This document shows positions 11,412 to 27,120 of a stretch of 64,000 nucleotides of DNA, piece after piece. Numbering within the stretch: the first letter of the stretch is position 1; each line of letters opens with the position of its first letter. The notes under the pieces are model-generated. The model had not been told where the DNA came from. It made no database searches and saw only the letters and a list, made by a program, of their open reading frames with translations. The stretch is from Microbotryum violaceum (Eukaryota), in the NCBI GenBank assembly GCA_001244265.2, contig CDLV01000011.1, positions 868,001 through 932,000 on the forward strand. Direction: 5' to 3'. The position numbers and the translations under genes are program-made.

Positions 11412-13711
11412 GAAGTCACGTGTCCCCCGCGGCGCGACAATCGCATCGAGCTCTTTCTCAGCCCCCTGCCTGTCCTGATCTATGTATGCCCAACGTCCGC
11501 ACTTCTTCGGCCTTCGAGCCAACACAACGTATTTTGCCACGTCACCGCAAGACTCGCCATCAATTGTTGATCCCATCCGATGCCGTTCAGCAAAGCCGAT
11601 CGAAACGATTTGGCGTGAACAGCACGCCTGGGCGAGACACTGAACTAGCGCACTTTACACTTTACGTTGACAAAGACACGGAGTTGGGCTGTAATCCAAT
11701 GCTCATCAACCTACATGAGCCATCGATCGAGCAAGACCGCCATTAATCTAGCATCACGAGCGCACCGACGTCAGGCTCCCGAGGTCCGCCGTCCACCGCG
11801 TTCCATCGTCGTCAACCGCCTACAACGTCCCAAAGCATTCTTGAAGACAACCAGACCGATAAAGAAGCAAGTAGCAAAACTTGGAATACCCGCTGAGCAA
11901 TACCTTCAGATAAGCCAAGTTCAGGAGTCGCTGATAAGGATCAGGTCGGAGCCAACGTTGGTCGACCACGATCATTGGACTACGCAAGAAGTGCAGGTCA
12001 ATGTTAACAGCTCGAATACTAAGGATCATCTCGGTGATATCCGTTGCTAAGCTGACATCTATCGTCACAACATCTGCCATGAAATAGAGCCGTTAGAGAA
12101 AAGGTACCGTGAGTCCTCGCCCGACCATTAGCCGATTCCCCCTGCCACTCCATCTCGTGTACTGAAGTCGGCGTTTCTGTGTTCCCCGTTCCCAGAGGAA
12201 TGACTAGAAAGAAATCCGCTCATGTTACGATACCCAGTCCGACTCGTTCAACGCATCTATAGTCACTTTGAGCTACCCTTCGCTTCGACTTTAGTTCTAC
12301 CGAGCCCACCCGGTCCGTATGGTCAAAGATCCGAACGGACGCCGTCTCTCAAGTGAGCAGAGCAACGGACAAAGTCAGTTACTACTAAGAAAAATCAAAC
12401 ACACTTTACAAGCATCAGACGGCAAGAGTGTCGGGTCTTGTGCTCCCTCGGCGATTGAGGATTTGGAACTGCGGCGGGACGAAATCGTGACGCTATGCAA
12501 CCACTAAGATCGGAACATAAGGAGGATACAGATTGGCTCCACGACCTGCCATCCAGCGTGCCATCACTTCGCGCTACCAACAGCCTTTGTATGAAGCTCG
12601 CAAGAAGAAGGACTGGCGTGAGTTCATGCTCGGCGGACCATATGACAAGATCTTCTGACCTCGGCTTGATCCTTATCGGCATCGGTATCGATCGGCATCC
12701 TTCCCTGCGCTTCTCTCATGGGCATCCTCGGTATCTTGATATTTCATGGCCTTCAATTTACGAATTATCCCGCCATTCAGGATGTGCTCCAACGGATACC
12801 AGCGCAACAAAACGGTCCTCAAGAACGGTGATTCGAGACTCGCTGGTAGCTTGGATTGGCCTCGCCGAACCCGCGATCTCAATCGACCGGTGCCTTACTC
12901 TAAGCATTGGAACTCCAACACGGTGAGATGTTCGCACAGTTTTTGTGGAAGCCATTTCTGGTAAAGCAAAGGATATGTCTTGTAATTCACGTGTTCGTAG
13001 CTTGTTTGTTTCATTGCTCTTTACACTGCTGTCTGAGCTTTGAAAAGGCTTTGAAGTGAGGCGGCTGCGAGCGGGACTGTAAGCGTGTTTCTCAAGCTTA
13101 GGCATACCATCTTTGCCTGGTGTTGGTGTAAAGATACCGAATTCGGGCAAGTTAACAAGAGAGTACTATGCCCATGTACATCATGTGTTCGACTTTCCTT
13201 CTTCCCGCTTCTTCGATTCTTTTCTTTATTTCTTTCCTTTTTCTTTCTCTTTTCTTCTCCTTTTTCCTTCCCTTCGTTCTCTTTTTTATTCCTTTTTCTT
13301 TTTCCGCTTCGCCGGCAACTCCCTTGAAATGGGTGGCGGCCCAAATCTCGCGCGACCGCTTCGGACACGTGACATTGACGACATCCGAAAGATGCGAGAA
13401 AAATATCAAGGAAGGAACGCATCTACTACCCACTTTCCTAATCTAGCAGCTGTGAGAGTGTTGTGTGTACACAGAATCGACTCGAAGCAGAGAGTTGGGT
13501 GTAACCTGGGCCAAGTCGGCGCCCTAGGGTAGCAAGGCTGCACCTCGCTGTGGCAGTGACTTGTAAGGCGCGTGAGGGGGCGCTGCGCGCGCGCCTGTTG
13601 AGGCGGATTTTTTATGTCTGCCCGAGGTGGCGCGCGGATAAGTCCTAAGCCCCTTCACAGAGTGGAAGGCTTAGTTGACTCCACAAAGAGTGGAGGGCTT
13701 AGTTGAGCTTA

Positions 13712-17400: not shown

Positions 17401-20400
17401 TCCATATGAAATTTAGCCCCCGATCGCTGAAGATCCTAGCACTGACCCACAGATCACTCACTCTCAGTATACCAATCCGGCCTGGAGTCGGTCGTCGAGG
17501 CACGGAAGTCGTGATATTGGGCCACCGTATTGCTCGTCTGATTCGTCGAGCTGAGCGTGACCCAGGGACTAACCGTGCCCGTGACGCCGTTGCACAATGC
17601 GCTGACCTGCACGGGAAAGATGCTCGTCGCATCCGTCCCACCGTACTTTTGGATCGACCGGATCGGAATGACGCTGGTTCCAGGTTGATGCTTAGGCGCG
17701 AAGCTCGTCAAGTCAAAGACCTCACCTCGGATTGCGACGAGCATGTTGTCCGGATCGTTCGAATAGGATCGCGACGACAGCTCTCCCGTCGAAAACACGT
17801 ACTCCCTCGGACAAATCAGGTTGCCGAGCACGACGATGACAAAAATGGCGCAGCCGCAAATGAACCAGATGATCATGTTGATCAACAGCTTCTCGCGCCA
17901 TGCCATGCGCACATCGCGGCGTTTCATCCCACCGACTCGCGAAAGGCAGAACGACGGGATCCACCAGGTGAACATCCAAGTCAAGGCGATCCAGCGCTTG
18001 CGGCTCGTGCTCGTGCGAACCTCTTCGACCGTCTCGTGGTGCTCCCCATCTCGTATCTCGGTATCGAGAGCGTTCTTGCCTTCGAACAAGGCGTTCCCGT
18101 TCGTGAAAGCCGAAGAGGGGTCCATCGAGCGATCGTCGTCCCACGCGCTTGCACGCCCATCGCCTTCGTCAAAATAACCCTTGGGATCGTAGTCGAGATC
18201 CGATTCGGCGTAGTAACCCAATCCACCCGGATGCACGAGCGGCAATGCAGCGTCCGAATCGTATGGGCCAAAATTACCAATACTGGCGTGAGGGGCAGCA
18301 TCGGCCATGAGGTACGGTGAAAAGGTGTCGACGGGCACTTGCGAGGGGTCCCGATCAAGCTTCTCGCGATTGCGGGCCTGTTCCTCCGGATCGGTCGCCC
18401 GAGTAAAGTCCTCAAGGTACCGGAATGCCCCATCGTTGAGAAACACCTTGGTCTCGCCAATGGCCATGTCGCTGTCAGAAAAGCCCAAAATCTCGCGCGC
18501 CTTGGCTGCCTTGTCACGGTACATCAATGGAGCGAGCACCTGTGTCGCTTGCATGAGTGCCGGCGTCCCAGAGTAGCGATCCCACCATTCCTTGATCTCC
18601 AAGTTGACGAGCCATTCCCCTCGTAACCTTTGCGCAAGTTCCGCGAGTCCCAACGCTCGAACCTGGTGTTTGAGCAGACGGGCATCAACCTGGTTCGGCA
18701 GTTGGGCATCGTTGGGCCGCAGGCAATAAACATGCCATGACTTGGTTGAGGCGATGGTGGTCAGCAAGAGCGACAGCGAATCTTTAACGTCGCGAACGAT
18801 TGAGCGGCTTGCGCTCGGCTTCAACTCGGTCCTTGTTGTGGCGGCAGCGGCATCGACCTCATCGACCTCGACGCTGGGATCGGCGAAAGGATTGACACGT
18901 CCTCTTGGTCGTCGGGTCGAGGGTGCACGCCGTGGAGTGACTTTCTGGGTGACCTCAACGATCGTGTTCTCATTCCGAGGGTGGGCGACCGTTTCGAGAG
19001 CACCACTTGTGAAGAGTTGTCGAACAAAGGAGAATGTCGAGCCACCTGTCCAGAGCTGGTCACGAGAGCTCGGTGTGGTTCGCCTGTGAACACCAATCTT
19101 GGGTTGCGATCCAGCGAGTAGCGTGACAAAGTTTGGAGAAAGGCCAGCCGAGTTGTCGCCGAGCAGATTCTCGGCCGAGTATGTGACTGGCCCATCCCAG
19201 TGGGCGACGGTGAATGACCCAGCTCGACCCGCCGCAGCATTGCTCTCCTTGACCTCGAAGCCATCGTGCTTTCCCCAGCGCTTCGACATGGCGCTCAACA
19301 TCGTCGCTTCTGTCTTACCCCGCCTTCGGCTCTGGTCATCAATGATGTGGACCAGTCCACCCGGGTGCGTCGTCAACAGTCGCGTCGTCTCCGAGTTTGA
19401 GCGATAAGCTGTCCTGAGGCCTGGCAAGCTTTTTTCGAGCCCTTCTGCGACATATTCCGCCTTTTGACCTTCGAATAGCTGCTCCATCGTGAAGCAGTAC
19501 ATGCGCTCCGCAGCCAAGTTGAACGTGAACGCATCGAGACCAGCACCTTCGCGGTGAGCCGCCGATGACGACTGCACAGGTCCGGGGAGGTCGACGAGCG
19601 AGATGAAGGTGGAAAAGTCGTCTCGACACAGCTTCTCGTTGAGGAATTCACTTATCCAGCTGAACAAGAGCGAGTACAGCGATTGTGCAAGATCATCTCG
19701 ATTCGAGGCTGCTCCGTCGGCGTCGAGAAAGATGGCACATCGCTCGCCACTGACCATCGTCGCCTTGTTCGTTAGAGCAAACTCGAGCTCAGACGCTTCG
19801 ACACCCAAGAACTCGGCCGCCGTCTCGAGCACGCGCACGTTCTTGACAACCGCAGAGTCCGCATTCCGGTTCTTGTCGAAGTAGAATTCAATGTTGCCGA
19901 GGTGAAGGATGGCAGCGAGGATCTGCAGGACCGAAGCGACGGCCTTTCTGGGGAAACCGACGGCCTTGAAGGCATCCTTGAGCTGGTTGAAGCGAGTGGC
20001 ATCCGCCGATGAACCCGACGTCGAAATACGATTATGTGATAGGTACTTGAAAGAGGTCGCCTCGTCGAGCTTGAGGTGGGCTCGCTCCTCTGGCCGGGCA
20101 CCGGAAAGGAGATAGTAGAAGGCGTGAAAATTCCGCTCGCCAACGACGGGAGAGGTTACACGAGACTTTTCGAGGTAGTACTCTAGACCTTTAAGACCAA
20201 CGACTCGACCTTTTTCCGAGAACTGCAACTCTGTATATCGTCCGAATCGAGATGCGTTGGTGTTGTAGATTGCCGAGGCATGACCGAACGAGTCGAGAAT
20301 GAAAAAAGCCGAGGGGATCGATGTAGCGAGTTTCGACCCTTTCTTTCCAACCGGCGGCAGCGAAAGGTCGATGAACGACTTGATCACGAGTCGGGCCATC

Positions 20401-20919
20401 TCCGTCTTGCCCGATCCGGTCTCTCCACTGTTTCGAGAGGAACGCAAGCGTCGGACAGCATCAGCAAAGGTTCCAGACGGACAGGGCCGAGCACATACCC
20501 CTCCCCGAGAGGGTCCATGCGAGCGAGGGTATCTGGTCGCGGTGACAAGACGAGAAGCGGCTGTACGACACTGACCTGAGTATTACGACCTGATCCTGAC
20601 CTGTCCGTCGCATGTGGTAGTACGCCCTGCCACTCAGAGCCCAAATGTGTGGTCCGAGTCGCCCCCTGACCCCTTCAGATCCACAGTCGGCATACTCGGC
20701 AGCCCAGTCGAGCAAAGTCGCATCCAAGTTGGCATGAATAGGCTGGTGTGGGTTGACGGCTACCAACACGCGGGGTGAGATGGCGGTGTACGGTATCCCT
20801 TCGAGAAAGCGAGCCCGGAGGATCGGGACCAGCTCGTTGGGTCCAAGTGGGGTAGTGCCCGAATAGTTGGTGATGTCGCCAAGCTCGAGCGGGTCAATAA
20901 CGACCTCAGCTTCCGGCAT
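14431..20919 (-). CDS. mcs1: Class V chitin synthase with N-terminal myosin motor, cytochrome-b5-like and DEK_C domains
   Basis: Myosin P-loop GETGSGKT and switch I NASRFG; AWREKL; b5-like [46 protein letters not shown] and DDFSWG; C-terminal DEK_C ([16 protein letters not shown]). Several GT-AG introns. Confidence 0.95.
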
Positions 20920-22186
20920 GACGGTGTGCCACGTTCTATCCGCGAGCAACAAAACAGAACAAATAGCTGTTAGCAACTGCCTTGCTGCATCGCGATCGTG
21001 TACAGCCCTGCTCACCGAAGAGAGCTTTCGCAGCCGACAAAGGCAAGCTGCGACCGAGACTGAATTGACGAAGCCGAGAAGTGGGTGCGGATCGGTGAAG
21101 ACGTGAAGCTCAGTTGCCAATGCGTGGGGTGGCTATTCGTAAAGCCGCAAAATTTGTTTCAGGTAAACAGAGTTATGCGTCTATATGGCGGGTGCGTGCG
21201 TGCGTGCGTGCTGTCGTCAAGTCAGTCGTTCGGTCGTTCGTTCGCGTCGTCGCGGCGCTCGATCGATTGTGGTCGCCCGCCGCCTCTGGCTCCGCGCGAT
21301 GTCGGAAAGCGGTGCACTCCGTGAGAATGGCACAGCAGTCCACAAGTAAGAGTTGGAGACCAAGGGGAGGCGTTGGGTCGTACAAGATCGTCGAAAGGAG
21401 AGTCAGAGAACAGTTCGTGAAACGAGAATGTCGCTGAGTGATCCCAACGCCCAACCCAAGCACTGGGGACTTAGTGTCCGAGCGGTGGGGGAACCAAGCG
21501 TACTGAACGTCGCGTTCGTGGTGCGCCCGCGATCAACTTGATTCGATCGCTCATGGCACGGGAATTCATTGCATCGGACACTTGGCAGCGCCATTCGATT
21601 TTACGCATTCATGTGTTCATGACATAATTGATTTGATTAGGTGACACGTCATCGCTGAATGCCGTATATCGAAGCTATTTCCCAGCTTGTCGCGCTCGGA
21701 CCTCTTGACCTCGAACCACTCCTCGATCCAGGGATCCAGGGAGCTCCCCTTTGTCCGATCGATTGTTGGAGTGCGCCCCCGGCCTGGTTTTATGTTTCTC
21801 GGAGTGATAATCTACTTTCGATACAAGGCTGGATGTAAACTTGTAGGCTTAAATTGTGTAATGTCACGTGACCGAGGTAGCTAGTTGCTGAACAGAGCTG
21901 GGCACCCGCCTAGTAGTTCCAGTAGCTAGAGCTTCAGACATCCCCGTCTCCAAGAATAACTGCCTTGAAGTGCACCTATCGACATCTCTCACAACTGTCT
22001 CTCTCAAAAAGCACCGATGCGAGTTGGGGAACAACCAAGAAGAAGAAGCTCTCCTGTCGGAAAGGGACATCTCGTTGCCCCCTATCCTGGGCCCACGCGC
22101 GGGAGAGCCGGCTGCCGCCTAGTCACGCGTCTCCCTCGCTTTCAGTTCCCGCCGCTCCCACCCCTCGCTCGCTTAGAAAAGACGCG

Positions 22187-23529
22187 ATGGGTTGCATCTG
22201 CTCAAGGTCACAGGCTGAATCTGGCCACGACGAAACGGCCTCGCTCCTCCCTTCTGACACGTCTTCATTGCGACCCGAGTCCACCTCCCAGTCCTCTGGC
22301 CGCGTTGAGGAGTCGACCAGCACTGGCACCGGTGCCACGACCCAGGCCGCCGTCGACGGCAGCCGCTCGGAACCTAACGCTACGGCGGGGAGCCCACCCT
22401 CTTCCTCGAAAGCGCGTCAACGCCCGCTCTCCTTGATCGATCTCCCCGACGAACTTATCGAGTACATCTGCTACTTCCTAGACCGCGACATGTGGAATCG
22501 TCACCTCTCGCTTCGTCACCTGTCGCTCGTCCGCAGTCGCTGTCGTGGACCGGCGCAAGCGAGGTGGAGGCCATTCCGAAGAATTCGACTCTGCTTGACT
22601 TCCTCGGCCTGTTTAACAACTACTTCTCAGACACTGTGGGGGGCCGTTCGCAACCATCCGAGTCCCTCGCCCGTGCAGCGCCTCGAGATCAAGGAAGGCT
22701 ATCTGCACGCTCCGTTCTCCCCACAGCTGCTGGCCTCGATCGCCGACCGGTGCGGCTACACGCTGAAAGAATTGGTACTAAGCCGCCTCAGTGAAGTCAA
22801 TCTGCAACAACTGAGTCAGCTTCCAGGTACGTTATTTAGAATAAAGGTAAAGGAACATCATCTCACTTGACGTGCTGATACTAACATGGAGGGGTCGTCG
22901 CAGGCCTCACTTACTTGGCCCTTCGGAGTTGCAAGTTTCATTACGGAGTGGTGACCCTTTCGACCATACGTCGCCTCGAGATCAATGCGCAAACCGTGTT
23001 GGACCTACCCGAATGCCACTTGCCTTTACTCGAGGATCTCGTCTTCTTCGATCACCGTGAATTCAAGGAGGGACTCGCGGAGAACAGCAAGTTTGAATAC
23101 TTGCTCACAAACATCGCCGACACGCTGCGTCGATTGTATCTGCACCCGATAGAGCGTGAAGCCTTCGAAGAAGTGGTATTAAGGTGGCTCCCAACCTGCC
23201 GCAACATCTCGCTCATCAAGCTCTTCGTCGAATATGGGACGGATCCGCGGGATGAAAGCGATCTCATCAATGCATTACCAGCCCATATCGCTCCAGCGGG
23301 GGTGCATAATTTGAGCCCCTCGGAGGACGACACGGATGGTCTCACCTTCAAATTTATCGAGTTTGACACCCTACTCGTGATCGCCAATCAACTGGCACCG
23401 GCGACCCCTTTCTACGGTGAGAATCACTCAGGACCAAAGCGCAGCTGCTTCCGTTTCGCATCGGATCTGTGCATCCATTCCGATAAAATTGATCGATCGT
23501 CGGGGCCTCGCATGAGACAGCGTTTGTGA
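22187..23529 (+). CDS. F-box protein with LRR-like C-terminus, paralog 1; N-terminal MGCIC lipidation motif
   Basis: F-box-like LIDLPDELIEYICYFL...LRHLSLVRSRCRGPAQ. Phase-1 intron 22827-22903 joins QLPG to LTYLALRSC. Confidence 0.75.
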
Positions 23530-24045
23530 CTAGGACCTTTGTTTGAAACATAGAGTTTAACTGCCGATGACACTTCGGTTCGGACGAGTCGCCTTGACGT
23601 TTCAGCAATATGTTGAAGCTCTTCACATGCCATCTTAAAAGCTTCCCGAACTCCCACACATTCACACATTCACACGTCCCCGCTTCCCGCCCATCATCCC
23701 CATCCTCATCTGAGCTGTTCTCATGCTGCGAGCTGAAGCTGCTGGCAGCGGACGACGATGTTTGGATCACGATCAGGGACGGGAGAGGAGGCCCTGCTAC
23801 CAGGGAGTCACACTTGATGTACGTGAGACATTCGTTCCGTAAGAGAGCTGTTTATCATCAAGTATACCCGTCATGACGTCTTACACTGCCGATTGGCGGA
23901 CATAGAGCCCCCCCTCAGCGTAACGCCAAATCCCCGAGGTGGCGGCGAAGGTGGAGGAGGTGGATGACGTCAGCAAGACGAGAGTGGTCGGGTAAACTTC
24001 CGGACGACGCATCGAGCTAAAGCCACCCCCTTCAAGTTTCTTCAT

Positions 24046-24167
24046 GAGAAGCAACAGTAGGGCAATACGATCTTTCACGGGACATACTTCACACATGTGT
24101 TCAAGAACCCCAACCCACCCTATTCCTTCACGAGAAGCAGAAGTAGGGCAATACGATCTTTCACGGG
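24046..24167 (+). repeat. Short direct repeat (~36 bp, 86-bp period)
   Basis: GAGAAGCA..AGTAGGGCAATACGATCTTTCACGGG at 24046-24081 and 24132-24167. Confidence 0.9.
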
Positions 24168-24169
24168 CT

Positions 24170-25485
24170 CAGGCTATACAAGTTCACAGATACTTTCAAG
24201 TTGAACCCCTCGGCATCCGTCGTGAAGTGGAGCGAAAACACTCTTCGTGAACTGTGACTTACACTGAGAAGTCCGAGTCCGGCGTCTTCACCATCTCGAG
24301 CAACTTCAACAAGGTAGGTAGGAGAAGTGCCGGGTTTCAGGTGAAGACGGGCGTGCACGCTGAGTACGGACTTGCATGGCATAGGCTGCATCATTGCTGC
24401 AGGATACTGACTTACCATGTCATAATAATAACAGTCATCCATAGTATTTTTATTTACAGTAGTTAAACCACCATAATAACTTTTTCTAATAACGCTTTCT
24501 ACATCACCTCATACATGATGAATAGATACTTTTCTATCATCATAATAATTATATCTAAACATATTTAAAGCTAGAGAAGCTACGGTCTTATAATCAACAA
24601 GATTATGTCTATAGTTGATTCAAAGTTGAATACTAAATTTCTCAAGAACTTTATATAGAACTAAACAATCTTGCTGGTTATATTTTAAAGTTTCTTCCTT
24701 AAGATTTCATACTTTATTATTACTATAGTCACTAGGTTCATTATAATATTCAGGACCAGGTTATTTACCGAATGCATAGCGCAACTCACCCGGAGATAGG
24801 CCTCAATTTCCTCAGTCTCCGAGCCTGCACTTTTCGATGAGGACGACGGCGTTCCTTCCCCGACATTAGTGCGCAATCCCTCGCAGGAGTGCCTACACTC
24901 CACCTACCTTTGATTGAAGACCTAGTCTTCCTCGACCACAGGGATGAACGGTGCAAGCGCTTCCTGAGCAATTCGGGTTCCTCTTGTATTATTTGACAAC
25001 GATCATCGAAGCCCGCAAGCCGCCGATTCGGTGAGGGTGGTTCTTGCATCAATTGAGCGTGAGATCGCGGAGAAACTCCTTTTGCCCTGGCTCCAGTCTC
25101 ACCTCTGTCATGCCGCTCATCGAGCTTTTCGGGAGCGTTGATCCTCAATCGGATGGCGCAGACGAGGTCGTCAAAGCTTTACCTTCACACATTGATCGAC
25201 ATGAGTTGGATGTGTCGCCAATCTCGGAGGATGACACGGATGGTCTGCGTGTGCGGAAGAGCCGTTCAAGCTGCTCGTTCGAGTGAAGGCCAATTCTTTC
25301 GCGCCTCACAGGGGGTCTGGCCCTGCGATGGAAGACGGTCTCCCACGTCTCTTCGCAGGTAACCAGGTGATTTTCGCCTTCGTGGATGCTCCTTCAACCG
25401 AAAGTGCTTCCCATCAGAGATCGTATGTGATGCGAGGAACTCTGCACTGTCGGCAGCATTGCTGCATCGATCTCTCTTTGCATAG
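24170..25485 (+). pseudogene. F-box family paralog 2, disrupted by frameshifts/stops, with an expanded intron
   Basis: Homologous pieces: GLNFLSLRAC, LHLPLIEDLVFLDHRDE, VVKALPSHI and EDDTDGL. The same phase-1 intron is present (donor 24314, acceptor 24799). The 5' boundary is approximate. Confidence 0.8.
24374..24772 (-). pseudogene. dpoB: Nuclear-inserted fragment of a protein-primed family-B DNA polymerase (mitochondrial linear plasmid dpoB type)
   Basis: About 25-30% GC island. With TGA=Trp (codons starting at 24709, 24622, 24511) it reads GK*PGPEYYN...WNLKEETLKYNQQDCLVLYKVL...KTVASLALNMFR...IRKSYYGG...YYYDMVSQYPAAMMQPMPC. This contains Exo III YxxxD, SYxGG and Pol motif A DxxSxYP. Confidence 0.93.
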
Positions 25486-25678
25486 CTCGAGGGTTTTTTG
25501 TCCTCCACAGCTCCACCCGCCTCTTAAAACTATCGCGACCCCTTTCTAACATGAAACCGGCAATGACGTGACCTCCCGAGTTTTAGACGATTAGCCGGAA
25601 ATGCACGCATGCATGATTCAGACAGGCAGCGCGTGTCCACTACTTCATCTTCGGCTCCCACACTTCTTCACATCAGCC

Positions 25679-27120
25679 ATGCAGTCGGTACAAAATCAAC
25701 AGTATGTTTCGTCCGTTATGCCACGGCCTCATACTGCTGGCTCACGGCATCGCGATGATTTCTCACGCTGCAGGCTCGACGGCAACGTCGGCGAGGGGCC
25801 CTGGGCATCGGAGTTTTTGCACATTTTACCTAAAACGGGCAATGCCGCCTCGGACTCGAGCGAAGCGATTGCTGAGGGCAAATCGGTCGAAGTCGAACAG
25901 CTCGTCTATCTCGTTACTGAAAAGTTGATCCTCAGCTCGGTCCAGCGTTTCCCAACTTCCTTGCTCGATCTACCCAATGAAACGCTCGAACACATCTGCG
26001 GCTACCTTGACGACGAACCCTCAACCGAGATTCGGGCGGCTGCTCTGCGCAACATGTCACTCGTTTGCCGTCGCTGCCGTCGACCAGCACAGGCAAGGTG
26101 GAAGCCGTTCCGCAGAATTCGTCTCACTTTGGGGCAACCAAATTATTCCCGTTTCCTTGCGTTGATGCCTCAATCCCAGACACTATGGAACGTCTTACGC
26201 CAGTCTTTTGCTTCACATCCCGTACGCATCGAGATTACGCTCCACCCTCGCAAACCACGTCGGATCCCCTCAGTTTTTGAGACGACTTCCTTCGCGGCGC
26301 TGCTCTCCGAGATCGCCGAGTTCCATTCGTTTGCACTTCAAGAACTCGCTTTCAGTACTCTCCTTGGAGTCCCACTGTCACCACTCGGGAAAATAAAGAG
26401 TAAGTTGGTAAGATTTTCATGATTTTCAGCTCGCCGAGGAGGATATTTGATCTTCACGAGCTGAGAACTACGCACGGGCGCCGGGCAGACTTCGTCTTCC
26501 TCGCGCTTCGAGGCTGCAGTTTCACTGCGGATCCAGCAACGATAACACTGCCTAGCCTCCTCCGTCTCCAACTGAACGCCGCTTCTCTCTTGAAGCTGCC
26601 TCGTATGGAGCTACCCGCCCTCGAAGACCTCGTAGTCTACGACCTCAACCAGACTGCTACACGAATCCTCTCAGTGGACGACCTTGGGTGGCTCCTTGAG
26701 AGCACCGCCGCCACCTTGCGTCGATTGTATTTGCACCCAATTCAGAGTGATGCCTTGGAAAGCCTCCTACTACCTTGGCTGCCAAGCTGTCGTAACATCT
26801 CGCTCATCAAGCTCTTGGTCGATCAAGGTTCGATTGCCGATGCTTCGACGAGCATCATCCACGCTTTGCCTCCCCACATCGCTCGCGAAGAGGCTAGATT
26901 GATCGATGCCCGTCAAGACGATACCGATGGGTTGGCTTTCAAGATACGTGCAGAGTTCAATCTGATGATCGTGGTGCAAAGCGAGTCCGCGAGCTCGAGA
27001 CATTTCTTCGGCCAGGAACGAACACGCTCCCACCCCAATTTTCGGTTTCCCTCGGACTGTGTCAATCACGCGCAAAAAATCGATCGCTCTCTTGGGTACG
27101 CCATGAGAACTTGCTTGTAA
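25679..27120 (+). CDS. F-box protein with LRR-like C-terminus, paralog 3
   Basis: LLDLPNETLEHICGYL...LRNMSLVCRRCRRPAQARWKPFRRIRL. Intron 26400-26488 sits at the same position as in paralog 1. Shares TLRRLYLHPI, CRNISLIKL and DDTDGL with paralog 1. Start codon uncertain. Confidence 0.75.

Follow-up and report, generated by a model that had tools for sequence, protein, structure and literature searches.

A NUMT-type insert with a protein-primed DNA polymerase fragment in Microbotryum violaceum and its probable mitochondrial source

A short AT-rich island lies in the 64-kb stretch of nuclear-contig DNA from Microbotryum violaceum analysed here (the window), and its minus strand reads as part of a DNA polymerase when TGA is translated as tryptophan. 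This locus raises the question of whether organellar DNA truly sits in the nuclear genome at this place and, if so, what the donor was, whether either copy could still encode an enzyme, and in what order transfer and decay took place.

The AT-rich island and its reading frame

The segment 24377-24771 is the sole sharp AT-rich island of the window, with a GC content of 0.286 as against 0.532 in the flanks (1 kb on each side) and a mean of 0.557 for the 64 kb; its limits are those of the stretch that the high-copy contigs described below match exactly in extent. When the whole window was scanned in sliding 100-base segments, GC fell below 0.36 at two places only, the island and 13201-13321, the latter being a CT-rich low-complexity run without organellar character. 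Translation of the minus strand with table 4 gave 129 sense codons (24760-24374, fragment P0001) in a frame begun at 24799, directly preceded by a TAA at 24763-24761, and the remaining five frames of the island contained 6 to 19 stops each. Open runs of at least 125 codons arose in 5 of 2000 mononucleotide shuffles of the island.

P0001 matched the Pfam family DNA_pol_B_2 (PF03175) with an E value of 8.4e-30 and a score of 104.5 bits, the cut-off being 25.8, over profile positions 129-251 of 468. A HMMER scan of 1.84 billion representative proteins returned 1283 relatives at E<=1e-3, 205 at 1e-10 and a single one at 1e-30. The closest relative, P0002, is a protein of 562 aa with 45% identity to P0001 that itself matches DNA_pol_B_2 at E 9.7e-84, and the cluster names retrieved for 8 of 150 relatives included one that was informative, "DNA polymerase type B, organellar and viral". 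When 150 homologues were searched against the window by tblastn under code 4, all 151 alignments fell within the island. An upstream extension of the polymerase homology to 24979, taken from the P0002 alignment, was rejected as a run-on with almost no identities. A PDB sequence search with P0001 gave nothing meaningful (one match at E 1), no protein with shared words was found for its 129 aa in a collection of 5.8 billion at near or longer lengths, and a search for similar loci produced 68 pattern matches in metagenome_contigs and 5 in viral_contigs, none of which was confirmed.

Three sequence blocks are recognizable in P0001 (Table 1), Exo III, YxGG and motif A, named as in the phi29-type polymerase literature. 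They follow one another in the canonical order and at the canonical spacing, and the columns that define them are kept in 141 to 151 of the 153 phmmer-matched stretches, drawn from 151 other proteins and aligned to P0001, on which all column counts are based. These features are shared with the phi29-type protein-primed polymerases of PF03175, from which the insert differs in covering only part of the profile, as a fragment rather than an enzyme. Exo I and Exo II, motifs B and C and the TPR regions of a complete enzyme are missing, and the open-reading frame is interrupted by the TAA. Judged from its predicted protein, the insert is a gene fragment of a protein-primed family B polymerase and not a member enzyme.

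The positions of the TGA codons agree with their being read as tryptophan, the first falling in a column that holds W in most homologues and the second at an aromatic position; the column of the third is variable and is therefore uninformative for or against tryptophan. The TAA (GK*P) stands opposite E in P0002 (IGKEP), V in P0004 (IGPVP) and S in P0003 (IGPSP).

These results largely confirm the first-pass annotation of this stretch, which had described an AT-rich island of about 400 bp with some 130 open codons after a TAA, had taken three TGA codons as tryptophan, and had recognized a protein-primed family B polymerase fragment from the motifs YNQQD, IRKSYYGG and YYYDMVSQYP in that order. 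The table-4 translation and comparison with DNA_pol_B_2 that it proposed as a check gave the match reported above. Its limits, 24373..24777, were right as to place and a few bases too wide when set against the source match at 24377-24771.

Table 1. Coordinates of the insert and of the features on it (window positions; column counts are out of 153 aligned stretches)
Feature	Position	Strand	Basis or observation
NUMT-type insert, 395 bp	24377..24771	-	GC drop, Pfam match, extent of high-depth contigs X9 rec29 and X16 rec20
TAA, in frame, within the transferred piece	24761..24763	-	Sense position in homologues
TGA codon 1, residue 18	24707..24709	-	W in 123/153; W in P0002
Exo III block, Y27-N-Q-Q-D31 (Yx3D; KYNQQD)	24668..24682	-	Y 149/153, D 146/153
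TGA codon 2, residue 47	24620..24622	-	Aromatic column, F 75, Y 42, W 19, H 5 of 153; W in P0002 and P0003
TGA codon 3, residue 84	24509..24511	-	Variable column; commonest K 42, T 23, N 18, S 17 of 153
IRKSYYGG block (YxGG)	24467..24490	-	Y95 143/153, G97 151/153, G98 151/153
A5 run (T5 on the plus strand)	24447..24451	-	Sole difference; A4 in the high-copy source
YYYDMVSQYP block (motif A, Dx2SxYP)	24401..24430	-	D114 148/153, S117 141/153, Y119 146/153, P120 144/153

Nuclear position, junctions and neighbourhood

The region 23900-25300 is present in whole or in part in 20 of the 24 sequencing runs listed; these 20 come from 7 studies and carry four organism labels, and at least half of its sampled words are present in 17 of the 24. 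Contigs were compared over 23400-25800 in 4 of the 24 runs (Logan contigs), namely X9, X11, X15 and X16, which belong to organisms A, B, C and D, respectively. In X11, a contig of 25,129 bp at a depth of 26.3 (rec4) spans 23903-25800 including the whole island. In X15, rec11 (24627-24815) bridges the junction at 24771, and a second contig (24363-24568) extends just 14 letters past 24377. The flank contigs of X9, at a depth of about 13, both stop 30 letters inside the island, a single letter too few for the bridging rule; contigs that end inside shared sequence are the behaviour of a de Bruijn graph at a branch. Neither junction is bridged by a contig in X16, and the nuclear insert is claimed here for organisms A, B and C.

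In data that are independent of the assembly, nuclear DNA adjoins the insert without a break on either side. This bears out the nuclear location claimed in the first-pass annotation and, as far as contigs can show, answers the test that it had set for a chimera, namely whether both junctions are spanned. A mis-join of mitochondrial reads into a nuclear scaffold, of which an identical high-copy sequence such as that found in some samples is the usual cause, is extremely improbable in view of the X11 contig, which comes from another study under another organism label and crosses both junctions at nuclear depth. The wide occurrence of the region among the runs also argues against a mis-join, as does the indel relative to the high-copy copy, which is carried by every nuclear-depth contig covering it.

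Between the window and X11, 1 difference was counted in the 395 island bases (at 24506) and 6 in the 2006 flank bases compared; in X11 rec4 alone, there is 1 SNP in the island and 4 in the flanks covered. The insert has thus diverged along with its flanks, indicating that it is older than the split between the strain of the window and the strain of organism B.

The spacer that holds the island is bounded by two tandem pairs of paralogous ORFs, 21926-23529 and 25595-27120, both on the plus strand. The first ORFs of the two pairs (21926-22870 and 25595-26422) share 40% identity over 166 residues, and that at 25595-26422 has a weak F-box-like match (E 5e-5) that is below the cut-off. The insert might have gained a role in the nucleus, for example by contributing to a transcript or by serving the downstream F-box-like gene as an AT-rich promoter or other regulatory element. 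Such a role would fit its retention in organisms A, B and C and its position, the second F-box-like ORF (25595 onward) lying about 820 bp downstream of it. We consider this very unlikely, as nothing indicates function and the divergence between strains equals that of the flanks. An open stretch at 24161-24508 that runs into the flank has no family match past the polymerase part, and the nuclear code places four stops in the insert. Since the TAA and the three TGA codons are all stops in the nucleus, the insert would do nothing there and is, as read from these codons, predicted to be non-functional.

No flanking direct or inverted repeats hinting at a target-site duplication or a transposon were found at the island. 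Two repeats were noted on its low-coordinate side. About 210 bases below the island is a direct repeat of 45 bases (24037-24081 and 24123-24167) with 91% identity and 86-base spacing. The segment 23846-23978 is a short dispersed repeat, with other contigs matching 23846-23902 (52 bases, 6 mismatches) and 23920-23978; it was seen in 4 of the 4 runs compared and inflates summed depth there. The neighbouring ORF at 17454-20582 on the minus strand is part of a myosin-motor chitin synthase gene with Myosin_head and Cyt-b5 domains. A chitin synthase of Microbotryum saponariae (1961 aa) matches it at 97% identity, and the next matches, proteins of Rhodotorula and Sporobolomyces, reach about 60 to 63%, which places the window in the nuclear genome of a Microbotryum.

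The high-copy source

Two contigs of much higher depth cover exactly 24377-24771. The first, X9 rec29, has 394 bp and a depth of 994 as against about 13 for nuclear contigs (76-fold), and the second, X16 rec20, has 1803 bp and a depth of 59 as against about 5 for the flanks (13-fold). Over 394 aligned bases, both differ from the insert by no substitution and by 1 indel, a letter missing at 24447 that is missing in no nuclear-depth contig and that reduces the A5 run to A4. A near-identical counterpart at organelle-like copy number and with the organellar code is thus present in these runs, and the fairly recent transfer proposed in the first-pass annotation is borne out by the lack of substitutions between the two copies.

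The TAA falls inside the stretch matched by the high-depth contigs with no other letters, indicating that the donor carries it too. Reading of the A4 version ends after residue 115, a point that lies between YxGG and motif A. With an in-frame TAA and a frameshift, the high-copy source would, by its reading frame, itself be a pseudogene. X9 rec29 and X16 rec20 both have AT-rich loose ends on either side that are unlike the sequence of the window. Translated by hand, the upstream loose end gives FVNKDNLNNIGK*PGP in the polymerase frame (compare FINKDNLEYIGPVP in P0004), and the downstream one gives PMP and then VGKPW with one further TGA (compare MPIGKP in P0002). As the loose ends are in the polymerase frame on both sides, the donor is a longer dpo sequence from whose middle the nuclear piece was taken. 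From the depth, AT-richness and TGA codons of the source, we infer that it is mitochondrial.

A stretch of 30 bases of the island (24382-24411) occurs with no mismatches in a separate X11 contig of nuclear-like depth (rec6, 384 bp, depth 30.6), and likewise in X9. One loose end of rec6 is AT-rich and the other GC-rich, and this contig may represent another very small insertion that the same donor left at a different place in the nuclear genome.

Mitochondrial genomes of this genus are already known to contain related sequences. Homologues of dpo and/or rpo were reported in 57.14% of the basidiomycete species analysed in PMC8672057, and Supplementary Table 5 of that work assigns to DNA_pol_B_2 both orf712 of NC_020353 (M. 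lychnidis-dioicae, 107,808 bp), whose match is C-truncated, and orf695 of NC_020354 (M. cf. violaceum, 92,107 bp). It also has four RNA_pol fragments for NC_020353. Accessions and sizes of both Microbotryum mitogenomes are given in PMC4019555, and the first of them is cited as unpublished work in PMC3942027. The high-copy source behaves like such an integrated basidiomycete remnant, and it differs from the annotated dpo ORFs in carrying a TAA and a frameshift in the region from Exo III to motif A and in having no protein with shared words. The lack of shared words indicates that the source is probably not an annotated mitogenome ORF, provided that the collection holds those, and it is probably a further, unannotated remnant.

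The donor could instead be a free linear mitochondrial plasmid that has dpo, rpo and terminal inverted repeats and is still segregating in some strains. The relatives of P0001 do form the plasmid polymerase family, and X9 and X16 show the high-depth copy where X11 and X15 have no high-depth contig on the island, as would be expected of an element that some strains lack. The lack of shared words, and hence of an annotated mitogenome ORF in that collection, points the same way. We regard a free plasmid as unlikely, however, because an autonomous plasmid needs a working polymerase and the high-copy copy has a TAA and a frameshift in conserved blocks. For this genus, integrated pieces of dpo and rpo have been recorded (PMC8672057), the literature as excerpted for this work yielded no report of a Microbotryum linear plasmid, and missing contigs in X11 and X15 are no proof of absence. 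Some mitochondria may lack the element or carry a diverged form of it.

An autonomous protein-primed plasmid could not be sustained by a polymerase gene that a stop and a frameshift have broken, which favours a decayed remnant. The most likely source is thus a plasmid remnant that forms part of the mitochondrial genome, ahead of a free linear plasmid. This does not agree with the suggestion in the first-pass annotation that the insert records a linear plasmid that may be unsequenced or already lost. A near-identical copy is present at high depth in two of the runs, both published Microbotryum mitogenomes have DNA_pol_B_2 ORFs (PMC8672057), and the broken state of the source is a better fit to a decayed remnant than to a live linear plasmid.

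Order of events and significance

A NUMT-type insertion of a decayed, plasmid-derived dpo piece, whose source is probably integrated in mtDNA, is the explanation that we hold to be quite likely. A 395-bp piece of an already decayed dpo would have escaped from the mitochondria of Microbotryum and would have entered the spacer that separates the tandem F-box-like paralogues by ligation at a double-strand break in nuclear DNA, presumably through end joining, a mode taken from NUMT formation in general since no empty site was seen. The organellar copy would later have lost one A from the A5 run. As the nuclear copy has the canonical motif spacing, the simplest order is the TAA, then the transfer and then the organellar loss of one A, and in this order the nuclear copy would keep the older, in-frame A5 state.

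NUMTs are described as universal in a review (PMC2820518, in the part available). The insert resembles them in being a short, non-functional fragment of organellar composition and code that lies between genes of the nucleus and has a nearly identical counterpart at high copy number. It differs from them in that it comes from a selfish plasmid-derived gene, already a pseudogene in the donor, and not from a core mitochondrial gene. Sequences of mitochondrial linear plasmids in the nuclear genomes of fungi and plants are reported in PMC10583447 (Mob DNA 2023); compared with the available part of that study, the present analysis resolves donor copy, junctions and relative age for a single locus. 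Nothing specific on fungal numts of plasmid origin was found in the excerpts of the literature searched.

The transfer is an ordinary one from organelle to nucleus that reveals no unknown plasmid, new enzyme or new mechanism, and it has little importance beyond annotation. It does provide a clean, well-bounded case of selfish plasmid DNA moved from organelle to nucleus in a pucciniomycete with the donor copy at hand. Since the nuclear and organellar copies are nearly identical, caution is needed in Microbotryum read mapping and mitogenome assembly, and the presence or absence of the insert might serve as a dating marker within the species complex.

The element was present in the runs of organisms A and D and was not seen among the contigs of organisms B and C. 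More tentatively, with a modest chance of being correct, the donor may be an element of plasmid origin for which Microbotryum mitochondria are still polymorphic, the nuclear copy then being a dated snapshot of it with the frame that has since been lost. If this is true, such nuclear fossils could order the invasion, decay and loss of plasmids across the anther-smut species complex.
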